Of a stretch of 15,567 nucleotides of DNA, positions 354 to 8,857 are shown one piece after another. The stretch spans positions 1 to 15,567 of the forward strand of contig DAOLFO010000041.1 in NCBI GenBank assembly GCA_035326305.1. The letters run 5' to 3'. The translations under genes were made by a program, and so were the position numbers. The stretch's first letter is position 1. Every line of letters begins with the position of its first letter. The notes beneath the pieces were generated by a model, which was not told the origin of the DNA, ran no database searches, and worked only from the letters and a program-made list of their open reading frames with translations. Origin of the DNA: Chitinophagaceae bacterium. Its GTDB lineage: Bacteria > Bacteroidota > Bacteroidia > Chitinophagales > Chitinophagaceae.

Positions 354-968
354 ATGGAAAAAGTAATTAACAGCATACCGGGCTACCGGGTATATGAATA
401 CCTGCTGGTGCTGAGCCCGCATGAGGAGCTGTGGAATAAAATCATGAAAGTGAAGGATGAGTTTGCCACTGCTTATGATCAGGAACAGGCGAGGTGGGGC
501 AAGCCGCATGTGACGCTGGTAAGCTTTATACAGTATGCCATGATGGAGGAGCGGCTGGTAAACCGGCTGCGCACGGTGGCGATGGGCACCACACCGTTTA
601 AAGTGGAGCTGAAAGATTTTGGCAGCTTCCCTGCGCATACCATTTATATCAATGTGCTGAGCAAAGTGCCGGTGCAGACACTGATTAAAAATATACGGCA
701 TGAAACGCAGCGGCTGATGAAGCTGAATGAGGACAATAAGCCGCACTTCATACTGGAGCCGCACCTGACGATAGCCCGGCGGCTGCAGCCCTGGCAATAT
801 GAGAAGGGCTGGCAGGAGTATAGTCACCGGTCGTTTACAGGAAGGTTTATTGCAGATAGCGTGACACTGCTGCGAAGGCCGGTGGGGGAACTGAAGTACC
901 AGGCCGTGCGGCGTTTTGCCTTTCAGAATATGCCGGTGCGCACAAAGCAGGGGGAATTGTTTGGGTGA
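354..968 (+). CDS. 2H phosphoesterase superfamily protein, LigT-like (RNA 2',3'-cyclic phosphodiesterase / 2'-5' RNA ligase family)
   Basis: 204 aa with two H-x-T-x motifs (PHVTLVSF near residue 52, PHLTIARR near residue 138) about 86 residues apart, the defining pair of the 2H/LigT fold. The size is typical (E. coli LigT is 176 aa). Confidence 0.65.
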   Translation: MEKVINSIPGYRVYEYLLVLSPHEELWNKIMKVKDEFATAYDQEQARWGKPHVTLVSFIQYAMMEERLVNRLRTVAMGTTPFKVELKDFGSFPAHTIYINVLSKVPVQTLIKNIRHETQRLMKLNEDNKPHFILEPHLTIARRLQPWQYEKGWQEYSHRSFTGRFIADSVTLLRRPVGELKYQAVRRFAFQNMPVRTKQGELFG

Positions 969-1060
969 GAGGGTTTGAAGTTTGAAGTTTAAAGTTTGAG
1001 GTGTAAGGTTTAGGTGTTTAATAGGTTTAAGAAGTTCAAGAGGTTAAAAAAGTTTAAAGG
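966..1060 (+). repeat. Copy A of a C-depleted heptamer-array repeat (gtttgaa gtttgaa gtttaaa gtttgag gtgtaag gtttagg ... ggtttaagaagttcaagaggtt...)
   Basis: A tandem of degenerate 7-mers GTTTRAR/GTTCAAR seen directly in the sequence. It starts at the TGA stop (966-968) of the upstream gene. The block ggtttaagaagttcaagagg is shared with copy B. Confidence 0.8.
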
Positions 1061-1088
1061 GGTCTGGGGGAAATTATCAGCGGGGGGT

Positions 1089-1505
1089 ATGCGTATGGAA
1101 ATGAAGAACGGGAAAGTGCATGAGCCGCTTTCCGGCAGGGAAAAATACCTGACCGGGCAGGTGGTGGGCATTGCCATAGCGATACACAGGGCACTGGGTC
1201 CGGGACTGCCGGTGCAGGTATACGAAAGATGCTTTTGCCACGAGCTTCACAAAAGAGAAATAGGTTATGTGCGGCAGCATAAAATTGATTTGGTATATGA
1301 TGATATACGGATAGAGGATGGCTTGCAAATAGATATTTTGATAGATGACCTTATCATCATTGAGCTGAAAGCGCAGGAAGCGCATCACCCTGCCTGGGAG
1401 GCCCGGTTGCTAAGCTGCTTAAGGCTGACAAAGAAACGACTGGGCTATATACTGAATTTCCATGCGCCGTTGATGAAAGAGGGTATTAAGCGAATGATAA
1501 TCTGA
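1089..1505 (+). CDS. GxxExxY family protein (PD-(D/E)XK nuclease superfamily)
   Basis: The core ...GKVHEPLSGREKYLTGQVVGIAIAIHRALGPGLPVQVYERCFCHELHKREIGYVRQHKIDLVYDDIRIEDGLQIDILIDDLIIIELKAQEA...LGYILNFHAPLMKEGIKRMII matches the conserved GxxExxY layout (HR.LGPGLLE.VYE ... ELK ... INF). The ORF-track start at 1014 runs through repeat A (FKKFKRLKKFKG) and is probably an artefact. Likely starts are Met 1089, 1095 or 1101. Confidence 0.75.
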   Translation: MRMEMKNGKVHEPLSGREKYLTGQVVGIAIAIHRALGPGLPVQVYERCFCHELHKREIGYVRQHKIDLVYDDIRIEDGLQIDILIDDLIIIELKAQEAHHPAWEARLLSCLRLTKKRLGYILNFHAPLMKEGIKRMII

Positions 1506-1570: not shown

Positions 1571-2695
1571 ATGAGTAATCAGTTAAAGCAGGACCACTAT
1601 AAAGTGGCCCCGAAAAAGCAGGAGGAAGCAGCGGGAGAAAAAGCGGGCAGCTATATTGCCGGAAGAGGGGCGCAATTCAATACGAAAAACCGGTTTCTGA
1701 AAGATGAACGGACCCGGGAGCATATCGAAGGCATTGATGACTGGGAAGAAGCCATACAACCCACACAATATATCGAGCAGCAGGCAAAGACGATTGTGAA
1801 TAAGGTGGAGAGCAAAGATGTGGGCATGGGCTACAGCATGAATCCGTATGCCGGCTGTGAGCATGGCTGTATCTACTGCTATGCACGCAATGTGCATGAA
1901 TACTGGGGCTATAGCGCCGGGCTGGACTTTGAGCAGAAAATCATTGTAAAAAAGAATGCACCGCAACTGCTGCGGAAATTCCTGATGCACAAAAGCTGGG
2001 ATGCCACACCCATCATGCTCAGTGGTAATACCGACTGCTATCAGCCCGCCGAACAAAAATACCGGCTGACGCGGGGGCTGCTGGAGGTTTGCAATGAGTT
2101 TAACCAGCCGGTGGGCATACTGACTAAAAATTCATGGATACTGAAGGATAAGGATGTACTGCAGGAAATGGGGCGGAAAAAAATAGTATCGGCCATGGTG
2201 TCTATTACTTCCTTTAATGAAGACCTGCGCCGGGTAATGGAGCCGAGAACAACTACTGCCAGGCAAAAACTAAAAGTGATTAATGAATTGAGCAGCGCCG
2301 GTGTGCGCATGGGCATCATGATGGGGCCGATGATACCCGGCCTGAATGAGCATGAGATGCAGCGCATCATGAAAGCGGCGGCAGACAATGGCGCCACGTT
2401 TACCGCCTATACTTTCATCCGGCTGAACGGGGCCATCAAGTTTTTGTTTCATGACTGGTTGTATAAAAACTTTCCTGACCGGGCAGATAAAATATGGCAC
2501 CTGATAGAAAAAAGCCACGATGGCAAAGTAAATGATACCCGGTGGGGAGTACGTATGAGGGGGGAAGGGCCGATAGCAGAGATAGTGGCGCAGCAGTATA
2601 AAAAGTATGGAAAGCTCTATGGGATGAATGCAGAGGAGTGGAGCCTTGAGAGGAACCTGTTCAGGAGGCCGGGCGAGCAGGGAAGGTTGTTTTGA
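1571..2695 (+). CDS. Radical SAM protein, PA0069/SplB-like family (COG1533 'DNA repair photolyase'-type)
   Basis: 374 aa with the CxxxCxxC cluster in YAGCEHGCIYCYARN. Length and layout match the PA0069-family rSAM proteins. Its TGA stop (2693-2695) is the first triplet of repeat copy B. Confidence 0.7.
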   Translation: MSNQLKQDHYKVAPKKQEEAAGEKAGSYIAGRGAQFNTKNRFLKDERTREHIEGIDDWEEAIQPTQYIEQQAKTIVNKVESKDVGMGYSMNPYAGCEHGCIYCYARNVHEYWGYSAGLDFEQKIIVKKNAPQLLRKFLMHKSWDATPIMLSGNTDCYQPAEQKYRLTRGLLEVCNEFNQPVGILTKNSWILKDKDVLQEMGRKKIVSAMVSITSFNEDLRRVMEPRTTTARQKLKVINELSSAGVRMGIMMGPMIPGLNEHEMQRIMKAAADNGATFTAYTFIRLNGAIKFLFHDWLYKNFPDRADKIWHLIEKSHDGKVNDTRWGVRMRGEGPIAEIVAQQYKKYGKLYGMNAEEWSLERNLFRRPGEQGRLF

Positions 2696-2750
2696 GATTT
2701 GGGAGGTTTAAGAAGTTCAAGAGGTTTAAAGTTTAATGTTTAAGGTTGGG
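2693..2750 (+). repeat. Copy B of the heptamer-array repeat (tgagatttgg gaggtttaa gaagttcaa gaggtttaa agtttaa tgtttaa ggttggg)
   Basis: Seen directly. It shares TGAGATTTG with copy C, ggtttaagaagttcaagaggtttaaa with copy A and gtttaaggttggg with copy D. Confidence 0.8.
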
Positions 2751-3110
2751 TGGTGTTAAAGTACCAGGGAAGGCTTGTTGTAACAGGTTGCCGGTAAAAA
2801 TAGCAGCAAGCATAACGATGAGGTTTTTGAAATCTGCTTAAGAATGTCTGCAATGGTTACAGGCAGGCATCACCTGATACGAGATGGCGGTGAAAGAGCT
2901 GCTATAAATTATTTTTTAAAAATTCTTCTTCAAAAATTTGGCAACAACAAAAAAATAGTTTCATCTTTGCACCGCAAAACAAAAAACATGCTACGCATAC
3001 AGTTACATATTGAAGCAGGAAATTGGTTTAGCCCCAAAGGAGGCTATACCAGTTGCGGGGCATGTAGTGCTGCGAATTAAGTTGCAATAACTCATTCAAT
3101 GAAATACAGG

Positions 3111-3140
3111 CCCCGCAAGAGATTGCGGGGTTTTTGTTTG
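3111..3140 (+). terminator. Rho-independent terminator (CCCCGCAA-gaga-TTGCGGGG + TTTTTGTTTG)
   Basis: A perfect 8-bp GC-rich stem, 4-nt loop and T-run. There is no convincing protein gene upstream, so it probably ends an ncRNA or leader. Confidence 0.7.
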
Positions 3141-3399
3141 TATATATTTCACCACCTGCCGGCATCCTGACAGATGCTGAAGCGGGAGTAAGAAAATAAA
3201 AATCAAAAGAGATAAATGACAGTGTTATCATGGTATCATCAGTTGGGGAGTAAAAAAAATACACCCTTAGGCATGTGCTGCTTTATAAAAGCAGTTGCGG
3301 GGAATGGTGTGCCCGTTATGCAAATTGATAACCGAAATAAAAATAAAAGACCGGATGGTATTCCGATACGGGTGTGTTAACACCTGTCAGCAGGATTAA

Positions 3400-3430
3400 G
3401 CCCGGTCAGCAGTTGACCGGGCTTTTTTAT
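3400..3430 (+). terminator. Rho-independent terminator (GCCCGGTCA-gcagt-TGACCGGGC + TTTTTTAT)
   Basis: A 9-bp stem, 5-nt loop and T6 run, immediately upstream of the SD of the 45-aa ORF. A T-run follows only on the + strand. Confidence 0.7.
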
Positions 3431-3450
3431 ACCCGGAAAAAGGAGGAGCT

Positions 3451-3588
3451 ATGAAATTTTTGCTGGCTGTACTGGTAATTCACCTGGTAATCGCTTTTAT
3501 CAGCAACAGGAAAGAAAATAAAAAAATGCAGCAGGGGCAGCCGAAAGCTGATGGTGCTTTGCATCCGGCGGAGTACCTGCTGCGCTAA
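3451..3588 (+). CDS. Small ORF, 45 aa, hydrophobic N-terminal helix plus charged tail (MKFLLAVLVIHLVIAFISNRKENKKMQQGQPKADGALHPAEYLLR)
   Basis: An ATG preceded by AGGAGG 4 nt upstream, which is unusual in this genome style. One predicted TM helix followed by a basic tail. It sits between a terminator and the tRNA-like genes. Confidence 0.3.
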   Translation: MKFLLAVLVIHLVIAFISNRKENKKMQQGQPKADGALHPAEYLLR

Positions 3589-3702
3589 CAGGATTATGTG
3601 CAGAAGGAGGGATAAAGCTCCCCGCAGGTGCAGCGGGGATGCTTTTCCAAAAAAACAACCGTTAAACCTACTATGAAAATGGCGGCAGCAATGCCGCTGC
3701 CT

Positions 3703-3775
3703 ATAGCAGCATTCCAATTGGTTGGATACTCCGCCTGGAACGGAGAGGATGCAGGTTCGAGCCCTGCCTGCTATA
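3703..3775 (+). tRNA. tRNA-like gene, 73 nt cloverleaf, anticodon UGG (Pro) at canonical positions, with C8 and C33
   Basis: Hand fold of 3703..3775. Acceptor ATAGCAG/CTGCTAT is 7/7 paired. D-arm TTCC-AATTGGTT-GGAT has G18G19. Anticodon stem CTCCG/CGGAG with loop CCTGGAA. Variable loop AGGAT. T-arm GCAGG-TTCGAGC-CCTGC has a canonical T-loop. Discriminator A. The deviations are A1-U72, C8 (normally U), C33 (normally U) and one D-stem mismatch. Confidence 0.5.
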
Positions 3776-3860
3776 CATTAATTGTTATGAATTTAGAGAG
3801 AGAGAGAAGCCGGAGGCTTAAGCCATCCGCTAAAACAGTATGAATAAACAAGAGCAGTAC

Positions 3861-3933
3861 GGTGCTTTGGCAGAATGGATAGATGCGCCGGAGTGAAATC
3901 CCGGAGATCGTGGTTCAATTCCACGGGGCACCA
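3861..3933 (+). tRNA. tRNA-like gene, 73 nt cloverleaf, anticodon GAA (Phe), followed by CC
   Basis: Hand fold. Acceptor GGTGCTT/GGGCACC with two G-U pairs, U8. D-arm GCAG-AATGGATAG-ATGC. Anticodon stem CCGGA/CCCGG with an A31-C39 mismatch and loop GUGAAAU (U33, G34A35A36, A37). Variable loop AGAT. T-arm CGTGG-TTCAATT-CCACG. Discriminator A73, then CC at 3934-3935. G32 is unusual. Confidence 0.5.
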
Positions 3934-3971
3934 CCGGAAGAGTAGAAAATAAAAAAAGAAAACAAAGGAAA

Positions 3972-4499
3972 ATGGAGGCCGATATGGAAGAGACACAGCT
4001 ACAATGGAGAAAGCTGAACGGTGAGCGGCTGCGGATACCTATTGCCGAAGAAGTAAGCCGCATATTAATGCAGGAACGTGCTATGGGATATGATGTGAAA
4101 GCCTGTATTGGCACCGATAGCCAGGTGAAAGGTAAAGTGACAACGTTTGCTACCGTTATAGTATTTGTCCGGAAAGGAAAAGGCGGCTTCATGTATATAA
4201 GGAAAGAAGTTACAACACAGCGGATGAGCATCAAACAAAGGATGCTGGAAGAGGTGGCCAGGAGCGTGGAAGTGGCTTATGGGCTGTGCCGGTTATTTTC
4301 CCGGCATGGAGTGGATATGGAAGTGCATGCGGATATAAACACCAATCCGGGCTTCAAAAGCAACGATGCGTTAAAGGACGCCATGGGCTATATCATGGGA
4401 ATGTTTGCCCGGCCGGGAGAAACGGGTGGAGGCTTTGCCTTCAGGGCTAAACCGGATGCTTTTGCCAGCTCCAGTTGTGCAAATAAAATAGTGCAATAA
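3972..4499 (+). CDS. Hypothetical protein, possibly DUF458/YkuK-like RNase H-fold family
   Basis: 175 aa. CIGTDSQ near residue 45, VTTFATVIVFVRKGKGG, EVHADINTNP and a C-terminal AFASSSCANKIVQ resemble what I recall of the YkuK (DUF458) family. The family call is from memory, not a search. The gene itself is solid (clean ORF, co-oriented, 36 nt after tRNA-like 2). Confidence 0.45.
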   Translation: MEADMEETQLQWRKLNGERLRIPIAEEVSRILMQERAMGYDVKACIGTDSQVKGKVTTFATVIVFVRKGKGGFMYIRKEVTTQRMSIKQRMLEEVARSVEVAYGLCRLFSRHGVDMEVHADINTNPGFKSNDALKDAMGYIMGMFARPGETGGGFAFRAKPDAFASSSCANKIVQ

Positions 4500-4529: not shown

Positions 4530-5606
4530 ATGGAACATTTATTTAATCAGAAAATCATCAATGCCAATAACGTGTTTGATGATGTATTCCTGGATGCGAA
4601 GATGCTGTACCTGTACTGCTTCAATCATTTGCCCAGCAGGAATTTTATTGACCGGGTGGACGGCGAAAAAGCCTTTGCTGCGTTTAAAGAGCGCTATGCA
4701 GATATGATTGAGCACATTCATCAGTACCGGTGGTATCAGCAGGAGAAAAGGAAGTACCGGTTTGACCGGACTGTATTGATCCTGAAGAACAATTGCATTG
4801 CGGAGTTTGATGAAAACTATTGTGAGTTTTATCATGATGGCGGGGATGCAGGGTTTGCAGATGAATTGACGGCGCTGGTATGCCAGTTTAAAGAGCGGCA
4901 GCGCAGACAGCCCCTGGAGATTAACCTGATTGTGAAAAATAGCAGGGGGCTGTACCTGAAGGGTATGGAGATAAAACGTACAAAGCTGGATCTTGACCTG
5001 TATTATGAAGATGATTTTAAGGAAGTGGATCAGTTGATAAGGGAGCGGTTGTCGAAGAAAAATGATAAAGGCATCGTGTTGCTGCACGGGCTGCCGGGTA
5101 CGGGTAAAACAACTTACCTGCGCCACCTGGTGGGCAGGATACGGAAGCGGGTGCTTTTCCTGTCGCCATCGGTAGCGGATGATCTGATGAACCCGGATTT
5201 TATCGAGCTGCTTATTGATAACCCCAATACCGTACTGATCGTGGAAGATGCGGAAAATATTATCAGGGACAGGAAGTATAGCAATAACACATCGGTATCA
5301 AACCTGCTGAACATCTCTGACGGGCTGCTGGCGGATTTCCTTAATGTGCAACTGATCTGTACGTTCAACAGTTCGCTGACAATGATAGATCATGCGCTGA
5401 TGCGGAAAGGAAGGCTGATAGCCAGGTATGAGTTTGGTAAGCTGAGCGCCGGGAAAAGCCAGCGGCTGAGCGACCGGTTTGGCTTTAAAACAAGCATCAG
5501 CGGGCCGATGACGATAGCGGAGATTGCCAACCAGCATGAGAAAAGGCAGGAGCCGGAAAAAGTGGAGATAATCGGGTTCCGGCGCACTGCAGAATTGATG
5601 AATTGA
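4530..5606 (+). CDS. AAA+ family ATPase (classical AAA core in the C-terminal half, uncharacterised ~170-aa N-terminal domain)
   Basis: Walker A GLPGTGKTT, Walker B VLIVEDAE, and SRH/arginine-finger region HALMRKGRLIARYEFG. There is no protease or other fused domain, and the N-terminal region has no recognisable motifs. Confidence 0.85.
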   Translation: MEHLFNQKIINANNVFDDVFLDAKMLYLYCFNHLPSRNFIDRVDGEKAFAAFKERYADMIEHIHQYRWYQQEKRKYRFDRTVLILKNNCIAEFDENYCEFYHDGGDAGFADELTALVCQFKERQRRQPLEINLIVKNSRGLYLKGMEIKRTKLDLDLYYEDDFKEVDQLIRERLSKKNDKGIVLLHGLPGTGKTTYLRHLVGRIRKRVLFLSPSVADDLMNPDFIELLIDNPNTVLIVEDAENIIRDRKYSNNTSVSNLLNISDGLLADFLNVQLICTFNSSLTMIDHALMRKGRLIARYEFGKLSAGKSQRLSDRFGFKTSISGPMTIAEIANQHEKRQEPEKVEIIGFRRTAELMN

Positions 5607-5803
5607 TTTCAACCTGATAGCTGACCGGGTGTCAGCGCAAAAGCTTGCTTAACGGCAGGGCTGGTATTGCCTCTCCGGCAGTTAAACTATGCTTGTGTTT
5701 TTTAAAGGCACAGCAGTGCAGGCGCTATAGCTACCTGTATGCTGTTGCTGCAGCAGGGCATACCGGTAACACGCAGTTTCCTGAACGGGAAGTGCAACCA
5801 CTT

Positions 5804-5839
5804 GCAGGTTCGAGTCCTGCTTCTCCCCCAACGGGAGAA
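5804..5839 (+). other. Isolated tRNA T-arm plus acceptor-like hairpin (minihelix-like tRNA fragment)
   Basis: GCAGG-TTCGAGT-CCTGC is a canonical T-stem/T-loop, 16/17 identical to the T-arm of the 3703 tRNA-like gene. It is followed by TTCTCCC-ccaac-GGGAGAA. No 5' acceptor strand or anticodon arm could be folded upstream. Confidence 0.35.
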
Positions 5840-6206
5840 TGGCGGAATTGGTAAACGCAAAGCAATGGGGATGCTTCGTAAAAAGAAGTACACCACTTCT
5901 TAAAAAATGGTGAAGTGATAAAGCTGGTATTTCATGCCGGCCATACAATTCCCTGGTACTTCGCCGGTGTACGTTTTGGGTATGCTGGCACATGGCGGGA
6001 AGTATGGCAACCGGCTAACGGCCTGCAGGCAGGTAATGTACAGATGGCTTGTATAATAAAGGCGATGACTGGCAGTAGGCAAAAAGCTTGCAGGCACTTG
6101 TTGCATAAAATATACAATAGTTTAGGCTCAGCCTGCCTCCGCTGATAGCCGGTGGTATGAAATACTGGTTTTATTAAACAGGTAATAACAGTTAAAAGAT
6201 AAAAAA

Positions 6207-7307
6207 ATGAAAAAAGTAAAAGTAAATGAATACCAGGTGGCGCTGGTTTTCAAAGACGGGGAGTATAAGAGGATGCTGACCAAAGGCGTGTACTGGTTTT
6301 GGGGAAATGAAGTGATACAGTATTATGATAAAACCAGGCCATTTGCAGCACCGATTGACCTGAATATCCTTTTGCAGGATAAAGCGCTGGCCGATGCCCT
6401 GTATGTAACCGATGTAAAAGAGAACGAGATAGTACTGCAGTATGAGCAGGGATTGCTGAGCAACGTGCTGGTTGCCGGAAGGTATGCTTTCTGGAAAGGT
6501 ATTGTTGATTATAAATTTGTATGGGCGGATATTGGTAAGATAGCCATCACTGAAGATATCAGCAGGACTATACTGATGAGCAGGCAGGTAGCGCCATATG
6601 TGCGTACCGTAAATGTGGAGAATTATGAAAAAGCGATCCTGTTTGCAGACGGTAAATATGACCGGGTGCTTGACAGCGGTGTGTACTACTGGTGGAAGAA
6701 CAGCATCACAGTGCATATAGCGAGGGTGGACATGCGCCAGCAGCAACTGGAGATCAATGGCCAGGAAATACTGACCAGGAATAAAGCGGCATTGCGCATC
6801 AATGCGTGGGCACAGTATAGGGTAGCAGATATAGAGACAGCTATATTGGATAACAAGGAGTATGATAAGCAGCTCTATGTAGCTTTCCAACTGGCCCTGC
6901 GGGAATATGTGGCCGGCTTCAGTTTTGATGAGCTGCTGGAGAAGAAAGATACCGTTGCAAAGTTTGTGCTGGAGCAAATGAAGCAGAAAGCAAAAGAGCT
7001 GGGCGTGGACGTGAATGACTTCGGCATCAGGGATATCATATTGCCGGGTGATGTGAAAGAGATCATGAACCAGGTACTGATAGCAGAGAAGAAAGCACAG
7101 GCTAACACTATCATGCGCCGGGAAGAAACAGCCAGCACCCGGAGCCTGCTGAACACTGCCAAACTGATGGAGGATAATGTAATGCTATGGAAGCTGAAGG
7201 AAATGGAGTATGTAGAGAAAATTGCAGATAAGATCACTAACATCAGTGTAAATGGTAACGGTGACCTGGTAAGCCAGTTGAAGCAGATATTTGTGGCGCA
7301 GAAATAA
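6207..7307 (+). CDS. SPFH/band-7 (stomatin/slipin-like) domain protein with a duplicated N-terminal module
   Basis: 366 aa. The N-terminus has an internal repeat (NEYQVALVFKDGEYKRMLTKGVYWFWG vs ENYEKAILFADGKYDRVLDSGVYYWWK). An SPFH core follows (LEINGQEILTRNKAALRINAWAQYRV...ILPGDVKEIMNQVLIAEKKAQANTIMRREE) with a coiled-coil-like C-terminus. Confidence 0.8.
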   Translation: MKKVKVNEYQVALVFKDGEYKRMLTKGVYWFWGNEVIQYYDKTRPFAAPIDLNILLQDKALADALYVTDVKENEIVLQYEQGLLSNVLVAGRYAFWKGIVDYKFVWADIGKIAITEDISRTILMSRQVAPYVRTVNVENYEKAILFADGKYDRVLDSGVYYWWKNSITVHIARVDMRQQQLEINGQEILTRNKAALRINAWAQYRVADIETAILDNKEYDKQLYVAFQLALREYVAGFSFDELLEKKDTVAKFVLEQMKQKAKELGVDVNDFGIRDIILPGDVKEIMNQVLIAEKKAQANTIMRREETASTRSLLNTAKLMEDNVMLWKLKEMEYVEKIADKITNISVNGNGDLVSQLKQIFVAQK

Positions 7308-7352: not shown

Positions 7353-7405
7353 TGAGATTTGAAGTTTGAGGTTTAATGTTTAAAAGGTTCAGGAGGTTTA
7401 AAAAT
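7353..7405 (+). repeat. Copy C of the heptamer-array repeat (tgagatttgaa gtttgag gtttaat gtttaaa aggttcag gaggtttaaaaa)
   Basis: Seen directly. It lies between the SPFH terminator and the rtcB start, and its left end TGAGATTTG is identical to copy B. Confidence 0.8.
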
Positions 7406-7411
7406 AGTTTT

Positions 7412-8857
7412 ATGAGCAAATTAAAAATAACAGGGAAAGACCTGAGAGCTATTGATTACCCGGAGGGCCCGGTGATCAGCATAGCCATGCGTGTGGTGCA
7501 TAAGCATTACAAGCATCATGAAAAGGAGGAGGTAATGGACATATTAAAAAGAATACTGGCGGAGCCGGTGGAGTATGAGAAGGATGCGGTGCTGGGATTG
7601 ATAGCAGCGCAACTAATGCCAAAGAAGAAGGAAGGGAATGCAGAAATATCATTGAACCAGCAGGGAATACAATTTAGTGTATTCGGGCAGGAGCATATTG
7701 AAGAAGGGGCGATGCACCAGATGTACCAGGCGGCAAAGTTGCCCATAGCAGTTGCAGGTGCTTTGATGCCGGATGCCCATAGCGGGTACGGACTGCCTAT
7801 TGGTGGCGTATTAGCTACGCAAAATGCAGTGATACCTTATGGTGTGGGAGTAGACATCGGGTGCCGGATGTGCCTGAGCCTGTATGATATTGATCCAAAA
7901 GAGCTGGTGAACCGGGAGGCATTTTTTATACGGGAGCTGGGTGTGGCTACACTGTTTGGAAGCGGTGCACAATTTCAGCAAGCTGCCGATCATGCCGTGA
8001 TGGAGAATGAGCTGTTCAGGCAATTGCCATTGCTTAAACCCTTGCACGGAAGGGCATGGAAACAATTGGGATCATCCGGCTCCGGTAATCACTTTGCCGA
8101 ATTTGGGATAGTGGAAATAGCAGAGAAGGATGCTGTGCCGGGTGTGGAAGCGGGAAGCTATGTAGGTTTTCTGACGCACTCCGGTTCACGGGCATTGGGG
8201 GCCAATATTGCCAACCATTATACAAAGCTGGCCATCAGCAAAAGACGGCTGCCGCAGGAAGCGAAAAACCTGGCCTGGCTGACACTTGATGAAGCAGAGG
8301 GACATGAGTACTGGCTGGCGATGAACCTGGCCGGGGATTATGCATCGGCCTGCCACCATGTGATGCACGATAAGATTGCTAAACAACTGGGAAGAAAACC
8401 ACTAAAGCGGGTGGAGAACCACCACAACTTTGCCTGGAAGGAAATGTATGAAGGGCAGGAGGTAATTGTACACAGAAAAGGCGCTACACCTGCAGGGAAA
8501 GATGTGCTGGGTATTATTCCCGGTTCGATGACGGCAGCCGGGTTTATTGTAAAAGGTAAAGGAGAGGTTGCCTCTGTCAACTCAGCATCCCATGGTGCAG
8601 GAAGAAAGATGAGCCGCAGCAAAGCACTGCAATCAGTAACGGACAGGCAAATGAGAGAGGAACTGGATAAGCATGGCGTGAAACTGCTGGGTGGCGGACT
8701 GGATGAATCGCCATTTGCTTACAAGGACATTCATGTAGTGATGCAATCGCAACAATTGCTGGTGGATATAGTAGGACAGTTTACGCCAAAAATTGTAAAG
8801 ATGGATGGCGCACCACATAAGCAGTGGGGGAAGAAGGGTTCGGGAGGCAGGGTTTAA
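7412..8857 (+). CDS. rtcB: RNA-splicing ligase RtcB (3'-phosphate/2',3'-cyclic phosphate to 5'-OH RNA ligase)
   Basis: MPDAHSGYGLPIGGVLAT...IPYGVGVDIGCRM, GSGNHFAEF, ENHHNFAW and SASHGAGRKMSR are hallmark RtcB metal/GTP-binding motifs. The ORF-track start at 7376 reads through repeat C (MFKRFRRFKNSF), so Met at 7412 (MSKLKITGKDL) is the more likely start. Confidence 0.9.
   Translation: MSKLKITGKDLRAIDYPEGPVISIAMRVVHKHYKHHEKEEVMDILKRILAEPVEYEKDAVLGLIAAQLMPKKKEGNAEISLNQQGIQFSVFGQEHIEEGAMHQMYQAAKLPIAVAGALMPDAHSGYGLPIGGVLATQNAVIPYGVGVDIGCRMCLSLYDIDPKELVNREAFFIRELGVATLFGSGAQFQQAADHAVMENELFRQLPLLKPLHGRAWKQLGSSGSGNHFAEFGIVEIAEKDAVPGVEAGSYVGFLTHSGSRALGANIANHYTKLAISKRRLPQEAKNLAWLTLDEAEGHEYWLAMNLAGDYASACHHVMHDKIAKQLGRKPLKRVENHHNFAWKEMYEGQEVIVHRKGATPAGKDVLGIIPGSMTAAGFIVKGKGEVASVNSASHGAGRKMSRSKALQSVTDRQMREELDKHGVKLLGGGLDESPFAYKDIHVVMQSQQLLVDIVGQFTPKIVKMDGAPHKQWGKKGSGGRV

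Follow-up and report, generated by a model that had tools for sequence, protein, structure and literature searches.

A conserved non-canonical tRNA-Pro(UGG)-type gene at the head of a tRNA array in a Band-7/RtcB RNA-repair locus of Chitinophagaceae

RtcB is an RNA ligase that joins 3'-phosphate or 2',3'-cyclic phosphate ends to 5'-OH ends. Little is understood about either RtcB/Band-7 repair operons or long tRNA arrays, and functional data for arrays come from one cyanobacterium only. Long tRNA arrays are spread by horizontal transfer. In Anabaena they are induced by translational stress and co-regulated with rtcB, and aid survival; 23 of the 26 tRNAs of the Anabaena array are aminoacylated in vivo, and under stress the array tRNAs, and not the housekeeping ones, were seen to be partly cleaved, with a sponge role being proposed (PMC8421152). 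A second described element is the predicted b7a-tRNA (Burroughs and Aravind 2016, as summarized by Wang et al., bioRxiv 10.1101/312249), which according to this secondary description lies beside RtcB and Band-7 in some bacteria, is strongly tRNA-like but unvalidated, and was proposed to be a Band-7/RtcB cofactor. The YrlA RNA of Salmonella has been proposed to act as a competitive inhibitor of an anticodon nuclease (PMC7790460), and phage tRNAs carry anticodon-loop changes by which they are predicted to escape host tRNases (van den Berg et al. 2023, PMC10264068). The window analysed here is the whole of a 15,567-nucleotide (nt) stretch of a Chitinophagaceae genome (assembly GCA_035326305.1, contig DAOLFO010000041.1). 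It contains a 73-nt tRNA-like gene, t1, at 3703–3775 on the forward strand, and a second tRNA gene, t2, at 3861–3933 on the same strand. The most fitting description of t1 is that of a conserved, non-canonical tRNA-Pro(UGG)-type gene standing first in an array of putative spare tRNAs within a Band-7/RtcB repair locus. This array is part of an RNA-repair gene cluster of Chitinophagaceae, soil Bacteroidota, and the family of t1 loci unites Band-7/RtcB repair and long tRNA arrays in one operon.

The t1 RNA reads AUAGCAG-CA-UUCC-AAUUGGUU-GGAU-A-CUCCG-CCUGGAA-CGGAG-AGGAU-GCAGG-UUCGAGC-CCUGC-CUGCUAU-A. Rfam RF00005 (gathering score 29) matched it over the full length of the model with 48.5 bits (E = 6e-8), and its minimum-free-energy fold was a cloverleaf. 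An earlier sequence-only reading had described a 73-nt fold with a 7-base-pair (bp) acceptor stem, C8, G18G19, C33, a UGG anticodon, an A1-U72 pair and a canonical T-loop, and each of these was confirmed in its place. All seven pairs of the acceptor stem (AUAGCAG/CUGCUAU) were formed, ending in A1-U72 and followed by discriminator A73. The anticodon stem CUCCG/CGGAG enclosed the loop C32-C33-U34-G35-G36-A37-A38, the variable loop was AGGAU and the T-arm GCAGG-UUCGAGC-CCUGC. No CCA was encoded, C74 being the next base at 3776. Three further features had not been mentioned in that reading, namely A37, a D-stem with a U10·U25 mismatch at its base and a Watson-Crick A14-U21 pair; t2, which lies 85 nt downstream of t1, and the surrounding RNA-repair genes had also gone unmentioned. 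Realignment of the anticodon loop might have removed C33, and neither Rfam nor ARAGORN offered another register. With default thresholds ARAGORN did not report t1, and with 95 % thresholds it called a tRNA-Pro(UGG) with the flag 'Possible Pseudogene'. Searches of positions 2650–4050 for Rfam families besides tRNA gave sub-threshold terminator-like matches only.

Compared with a canonical tRNA-Pro(UGG), t1 has the expected cloverleaf (7-bp acceptor stem, 5-bp anticodon and T stems, G18G19 and a T54...A58 T-loop) and the identity elements G35, G36 and A73 of prolyl-tRNA synthetase (ProRS). It departs from the canonical form in having C8 and a 14:21 pair in place of U8 and unpaired A14 and A21, C33 in place of the U33 of the U-turn, and A37 in place of the G37 that serves as TrmD substrate and becomes 1-methylguanosine (m1G37). 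It also has A1-U72 instead of C1-G72, of which G72 is an identity element for an E. coli-type ProRS, although the ProRS type of the host may differ.

To place t1 in a family, 80 genome loci were retrieved through the Band-7 protein (the basis of all counts out of 80), and metagenomes were scanned with a t1-specific pattern independent of Band-7. Of the 80 genome loci, 33 contained a t1 homologue, which was in every case upstream of Band-7 and in the same orientation; the metagenome scan found at least 120 contigs with one. The family comprises >150 genomic and metagenomic loci, an abundance that includes cultured Niastella, Pinibacter and Paraflavitalea strains and makes t1 a well-defined test case. 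Among 27 homologues of canonical length, 99.8 % of stem cells were paired, with 43 cells changed on both sides and compensatory changes in 9 of the 21 stem pairs; none of 500 shuffles did as well and slid controls gave only 37–45 % pairing. Pair 5:68, for example, was CG in 17, GC in six, AU in three and UA in one, and changes on both sides were also seen in three anticodon-stem and four T-stem pairs. Positions 14 and 21 are normally unpaired A residues of the tRNA tertiary core. In this family they covaried as a Watson-Crick pair (AU 18, GC 8, GU 1), and the U10·U25 mismatch was invariant. The alignment (A2) was also invariant at A1-U72 (27/27), A73, U34, G35, G36, A37, G18, G19 and the T-loop. 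Mean column identity was 91 %, compared with 65–78 % identity of the neighbouring Band-7 protein. The t1 of the window differs by one base from the copy in locus L042, even though the adjacent Band-7 proteins are just 70 % identical; this near-identity, together with the compensated stems, is the signature of a functional RNA and lies far beyond what chance would give.

The unusual residues were also widespread. Unique t1-family sequences had C at position 33 in 54 cases, U in 16 and A in one (C ~75 %), and C at position 8 in 55 cases and U in 15 (C ~77 %); U8 occurred only with G14:C21, apart from two G14·A21 cases. A73 was found in 71 of 71 unique sequences, A37 in 80 of 82 of the pooled unique ARAGORN set and the UGG anticodon in 31 of 34 of the homology-defined set. 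C8, C33 and A37, which could be taken for defects, are conserved family characters and not random hits. The proposal of the sequence-only reading that t1 is a degenerating tRNA-Pro pseudogene is refuted by the 99.8 % pairing, the compensation in 9 of 21 pairs and the majority status of C8 and C33 in >150 loci. The pseudogene flag that this reading had suggested looking for was indeed raised by ARAGORN, but it is contradicted by the covariation of the family, and flags of this kind mislead in the annotation of t1-like tRNAs.

Some homologues have altered loops. The D-loop was replaced by a stable hairpin in L020, L021, L068, L074 and L003, and the anticodon loop was replaced by a hairpin in L024 and L072. 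The T-loop was interrupted by an insertion in L023, the T-arm was altered in L003 and the homologue in L019 had a T-loop deletion. The hairpin variants kept the acceptor stem and the remaining arms, and compensatory changes were present within the D-loop hairpin itself (GAAAGCUUUC versus GAUUGCAAUC).

In most of the 80 loci ARAGORN detected whole tRNA arrays at the position that t1 and t2 occupy in the window. Array tRNA statistics were based on 518 ARAGORN calls from the genome loci and 1294 unique array tRNAs from the pooled set. Arrays contained 0–19 closely spaced genes on the same strand (median 9), with four loci having none, and followed a semi-conserved order: Pro, (Ala), Glu, Asp, (Gly), Gln, His, Arg, Met, Ile, (Val), Lys, Asn, Tyr, Ser, Cys, Phe, Trp. 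Content differed widely even between close relatives. In 29 of 30 genome loci the array began with t1. Among the metagenome loci, 102 of 110 had no tRNA upstream of t1 and 107 of 111 had further array tRNAs within 400 nt of it. No match to the t1 pattern was found among 2.9 million viral contigs, megablast of the window against 50,697 phage records gave no match, and no plasmid-borne t1-like genes were found. A phage origin was rejected on the first two of these results, and the array context in metagenomes combined with the lack of a viral or plasmid carrier indicates that t1 exists only as an array leader. The array of the window consists of two genes only, the first member (Pro, t1) and a near-last member (Phe, t2), and is a reduced derivative of the longer arrays.

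The second gene, t2, is extended by ARAGORN to 3935 (ACC). Its anticodon arm contains an A31·C39 mismatch and G32, and two pairs of its acceptor stem are G·U. Homologues of t2 were present in 25 of the 80 genome loci, upstream of Band-7 and on the same strand, with GAA being kept while the anticodon stem changed. The combination of A31·C39 and G32 (loop GUGAAAU) was kept in ~17 Phe loci, while others had a fully paired stem and the loop UUGAAGC. Phe is thus a second array family with a non-standard anticodon arm. A few loci had extra tRNA genes between Band-7 and RtcB (L056, 8176–8933; L046, 8146–8218); the spacing between these two genes ranged from <100 nt to >5 kb, and the interval is an insertion hotspot.

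Rfam scores of the array tRNAs (35–73 bits) overlapped those of the housekeeping tRNAs of the same loci, and synthetase identity elements were kept family by family. G3·U70 was present in five of six Ala tRNAs, U73 in 10 of 11 Cys, G73 in 16 of 16 Trp and in 32 of 33 Asp, G73 with a long arm in 37 of 39 Ser, the extra G-1:C73 pair in 40 of 40 His and A73 in 24 of 24 Pro tRNAs. Because these elements have been retained, the array tRNAs look chargeable, and this is the interpretation that the sequences favour. C33 was specific to the Pro family (60 of 82, among the 1294 unique array tRNAs), with ≥95 % U33 in other families and a partial exception in Val (C33 in four of 26). All three families of the m1G37 type had A37 (Pro 80/82, Leu-CAG 16/17 and Leu-UAG 15/16), and Ile(UAU) occurred in 15 loci in place of the lysidine-dependent tRNA. 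Taken together, A37 in every m1G37-type family and the use of Ile(UAU) would constitute a systematic modification-bypass pattern. Position 37 was also unusual or variable in Asp (G/U), Glu (A/U/G), His (A/C) and Phe (A/G), G37 being found in half of the Phe array genes. Other features of the array tRNAs were G32 in Phe and Val; C8 in Tyr and Ala, G8 in Ser(UGA) and A8 in Gly; U1-A72 in Lys, Arg, Met, Val and Ile(UAU); and short Leu(CUN) tRNAs without a long arm. C74 followed the discriminator base in 469 of 518 array genes (90 %), with positions 75–76 mostly AA and CCA rarely encoded.

The genes of the locus (Table 1) are ordered LigT, radical SAM, three micro-open reading frames (micro-ORFs) with terminators, tRNA array, RNaseH-like nuclease, AAA ATPase, Y-RNA-like mimic, Band-7/SPFH and RtcB. 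Across the 80 loci, Band-7 was present in 80, the RNaseH-like gene in 59, RtcB in 57, AAA in 51, radical SAM in at least 19 and LigT in at least nine. Long metagenome contigs also had the RNaseH-like, AAA, Band-7 and RtcB genes downstream of the t1 array, and LigT was found upstream of the array in several metagenome loci. An RNA repair or defence context had been suggested from the sequence alone and is borne out by this conserved gene set. Homologues of the Band-7 protein of the window are 'slipin family proteins' of Chitinophagaceae. The DUF458 family, to which the RNaseH-like protein belongs, is an uncharacterized predicted endonuclease family of the RNase H1 clade (PMC3985635). The GxxExxY gene between LigT and radical SAM had no counterpart in the 80 related loci and looks like an insertion specific to this genome. 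Known defence systems were considered and rejected, as PADLOC applied to the window gave P-loop noise only and no model fitted.

Table 1. Features of the 15,567-nt window, with coordinates and the basis of each assignment
Feature	Position	Strand	Basis
LigT / 2H phosphoesterase (2',3'-cyclic phosphodiesterase family)	354–968	+	Pfam PF13563, E = 3e-20
GxxExxY PD-(D/E)XK protein	1014–1505	+	
PA0069-family radical SAM protein	1571–2695	+	NCBIfam NF033668, 460 bits
Bacteroidetes-type promoter (TTTG ... ATCTTTGCA), 30-codon micro-ORF, terminator	2936–3140	+	Alignment A4, terminator scan
45-codon micro-ORF MKFLLAVLVIHLVIAFISNRKENKKMQQGQPKADGALHPAEYLLR	3451–3588	+	Protein-level conservation in 21 loci
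Hairpin + T-run (intrinsic terminator or attenuator), between micro-ORF and t1	3619–3646	+	Terminator scan
Small hairpin GGCAGC-AAUGCC-GCUGCC abutting t1 5' end	3684–3701	+	Folding, spacer comparison
t1, non-canonical tRNA-Pro(UGG)-type gene	3703–3775	+	Rfam, relaxed ARAGORN, covariation, minimum-free-energy fold
t2, tRNA-Phe(GAA)-type gene	3861–3933	+	ARAGORN; Rfam 46.2 bits
RNaseH-like protein (DUF458/YkuK family), directly downstream of array	3972–4499	+	PF04308, E = 2e-31
AAA-type ATPase	4530–5606	+	Pfam PF00004
Y-RNA-like structured RNA with circularly permuted tRNA mimic	5707–5915	+	Partial Rfam YrlA match, nhmmer, RNAalifold
SPFH/Band-7 ('slipin') protein	6207–7307	+	Pfam PF01145, E = 2.5e-32
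RtcB RNA ligase	7376–8857	+	Pfam PF01139, E = 1e-77

The operon contains a further tRNA-like element in the Y-RNA-like RNA. The permuted module of the window consists of a T-arm (5803–5820), a closed acceptor hairpin (5821–5839), a D-arm (5840–5858) and an anticodon-like arm (5859–5877), and gave a partial match to Rfam YrlA (21.9 bits, gathering score 69). By nhmmer this RNA of ~250 nt was detected in 73 of the 80 loci, directly upstream of Band-7 (loci L002–L079, about 6400–6750), and RNAalifold predicted 46 pairs, 30 of which had compensatory changes. Most loci had two permuted modules; the window, L043 and L033 were without the first, the window keeping 5803–5877. The permuted RNA, and not t1, is the constant mimic of the system and the RNA that regularly accompanies the Band-7 gene, and it may correspond to b7a-tRNA or to a 'YrlA next to Band-7'.

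The gap upstream of t1 (2900–3655) was conserved in >55 loci, with strong conservation of the Bacteroidetes-type promoter ahead of the first micro-ORF. The 30-codon micro-ORF at 2988–3080 encodes MLRIQLHIEAGNWFSPKGGYTSCGACSAAN, a peptide conserved in 14 other loci with the consensus MLRIQLHIExxNWFSPKGDYTxCGACxxxx; it contains a CGAC motif, adjoins the radical SAM gene and is followed by a strong terminator at 3108–3133 in the terminator scan. This block was considered as a small RNA and rejected, as the structure found by RNAalifold was that of the terminator only and a conserved peptide is encoded instead. A possible 54-codon open reading frame lies at 3216–3380 with its own terminator at 3398–3424, and this block alone gave no matches in nhmmer. 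The 45-codon micro-ORF lies directly upstream of the array. Its product begins with a hydrophobic N-terminus, continues with a variable, charged linker and ends in an invariant HPAE[Y/F]xLR before the stop codon; it could function as a leader or arrest peptide, or else as a small membrane protein. The stem of the hairpin preceding t1 covaried over loci (CCCCG/CGGGG, CCCUG/CAGGG and CCCGG/CCGGG), and in most loci the last terminator hairpin ended just 15–50 nt ahead of t1. In the place of the small hairpin that abuts t1, the long-spacer loci L042 and L055 had non-homologous hairpins. The terminator scan found none between t1, t2 and the RNaseH-like gene, which suggests that transcription from upstream reads through into the array and on to the repair genes.

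The t1 gene itself, its conservation and covariation, its fixed position and its operon context are facts of these loci. As to function, t1 is taken to be a selected, working member of a diverged tRNA-Pro(UGG) family, and a chargeable stress or backup tRNA, whose odd anticodon loop serves to evade nucleases or to bypass modification, is favoured with moderate confidence over a pure decoy or cofactor. Under such a scheme t1 would share a transcript with the array and the repair genes that follow, perhaps one that reads through the conserved terminator just upstream, and would then be processed and given its CCA by the CCA-adding enzyme. ProRS would charge it through G35, G36 and A73, and t1 would provide proline decoding capacity under translational stress or after damage to housekeeping tRNAs, while RtcB religates cleaved RNAs. 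C33, C32, A37 and C8 with the 14:21 pair might make t1 a poor substrate for anticodon-loop nucleases, give it independence from modification enzymes such as TrmD, or both. A bolder form of this idea, which we put forward tentatively and regard as possible rather than probable, is that the arrays are an emergency tRNA set tied to RNA repair, able to evade anticodon-loop nucleases and to do without key anticodon-loop modifications (Pro and Leu(CUN) having A37 for m1G37, and Ile(UAU) standing in for the lysidine-dependent tRNA). In that case t1 would be a natural elongator tRNA-Pro whose decoding relies on C33, C8 and A37 and on an 8-14-21 core that has been re-wired, and expression would perhaps be gated by the three micro-ORF/terminator units sensing translation failure.

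Several points weigh against a decoding function. As far as is known, almost every elongator tRNA has U33 and every tRNA-Pro has G37 in the form of m1G37, so decoding by a tRNA with C33 and A37 needs proof. The precedent of the Nostoc array does not extend to the oddities of t1: its tRNA-Pro(UGG) is canonical, with C1-G72, U8, U33, G37 and an encoded CCA, whereas t1 has A1-U72, C8, C33, A37 and no CCA. The oddities of t1 are therefore not a general property of arrays. Furthermore, arrays appear to be dispensable and are never a complete set, with Thr almost absent. About one fifth of t1 homologues carry hairpin insertions in their loops, which appear hard to reconcile with ribosomal decoding and which suggest either that some copies are decaying or that the function is independent of the L-shape.

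Some of these points lend themselves to a different explanation, in which t1, perhaps with the whole array, is a non-decoding mimic that acts as a decoy or sponge for tRNA-cleaving toxins, or as a substrate, cofactor or sensor of Band-7/RtcB. C33, A37, C8 and the 14:21 pair break rules linked to decoding and to the tRNA core, and variants with hairpins for D-, anticodon- or T-loops persist, with covariation in the D-loop hairpin. There is also precedent in the stress cleavage confined to array tRNAs and the sponge proposal in Anabaena (PMC8421152), in the proposed inhibition of an anticodon nuclease by Salmonella YrlA (PMC7790460) and in the tRNA-like cofactor proposed for Band-7/RtcB in the secondary account of b7a-tRNA (bioRxiv 10.1101/312249). 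However, a pure mimic does not need the identity elements that are kept family by family, and the operon already holds a dedicated and far more constant mimic RNA in 73 of 80 loci, compared with t1 in only about half of the loci. A decoy for a nuclease specific for tRNA-Pro should, moreover, copy the housekeeping anticodon loop, from which t1 differs at positions 32, 33 and 37. We consider a mimic function possible but doubtful, and the sequence-only reading's version of it, a mimic that is not meant to decode, lacks support as it was worded since the array tRNAs keep their synthetase identity elements.

The remaining explanations deny t1 any special role. It could be a decaying tRNA-Pro pseudogene or the relic of a collapsed array that is intact by chance, as might be argued from the ARAGORN flag, the reduction of the window array to two genes and the disrupted homologues in L019 and L023. 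Against this, every stem is kept by compensatory changes, the difference from the L042 copy is one base, the supposed defects are family characters and the family alignment, with its independent substitutions, does not represent one recently spread sequence; a relic of either kind is highly improbable. It is at least as hard to believe that t1 is the ordinary housekeeping tRNA-Pro(UGG) of this lineage with some peculiarities. The anticodon, A73 and the overall fold would suit that role, but about half of the related loci have no t1, some lack the array altogether, and t1 is found only as leader of the repair-operon array. We also know of no case in which a sole tRNA-Pro has A37 in place of m1G37.

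If t1 is charged and used, as in the favoured reading of a backup tRNA, it bears on why U33 and m1G37 are otherwise universal and on translation under attack by tRNA-targeting toxins. Should the arrays prove to be an emergency set, then the 'universal' U33 and m1G37 would be dispensable in vivo. If t1 does not decode, it would be a clear-cut case of a decoy or cofactor that derives from a tRNA.

Comparison with known RNAs places t1 among several partial relatives. The best-known tRNA class with both C33 and A1-U72 is the eukaryotic cytoplasmic initiator tRNA-Met, in which C33 is compatible with ribosome binding. This class differs from t1 in its CAU anticodon, the three G-C pairs at the bottom of the anticodon stem, its T-loop and its domain of life. 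Neither the anticodon nor its stem agrees, for which reason the likeness was discounted; it is most likely coincidental. As with phage tRNAs, t1 would be an extra copy whose anticodon-flanking positions are unlike those of the housekeeping version; unlike phage tRNAs, it is chromosomal and bacterial, and its nuclease resistance is only proposed. YrlA (RF02553), found in rsr-yrlBA-rtcBA operons, is a tRNA-like RNA in an RtcB repair operon, as is the RNA at 5707–5915 in the window. In contrast to YrlA, t1 is an unpermuted, open cloverleaf: its 5' and 3' acceptor ends are free, and it has a discriminator base as well as an anticodon loop. No protein of the window showed a Ro60/Rsr (TROVE) domain. 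With b7a-tRNA, as known from its secondary description, the t1 locus shares a tRNA-like gene beside Band-7/SPFH and RtcB; that description does not mention whole arrays or a C33/A37 Pro family.

Along with b7a-tRNA, the closest known kind is the long array co-regulated with rtcB in cyanobacteria, as in Nostoc/Anabaena PCC 7120. The two arrays differ in that the one described here lies inside a Band-7/RtcB operon with a Y-RNA-like RNA and in a different gene order, with no HNH endonuclease seen beside the array in the window and with a window array of two genes. A common origin of the oddities of t1 with the Nostoc array was rejected, the Nostoc tRNA-Pro being canonical. Other oddities are common to the Nostoc and Chitinophagaceae arrays, namely Phe and Asp tRNAs with G37, a base other than U at position 8 in several families and short Leu tRNAs without the long arm. 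In both systems tRNA genes that are apparently extra are arranged in tandem, closely spaced and on the same strand, with a patchy distribution and variable content, and in both rtcB and other RNA-processing genes lie nearby or share regulation with the array. The neighbourhood rich in rtcB and RNA-processing genes that marks long tRNA arrays is found here as well, with RtcB in 57 and the RNaseH-like gene in 59 of the 80 loci, LigT in addition, and the same setting in metagenomes.

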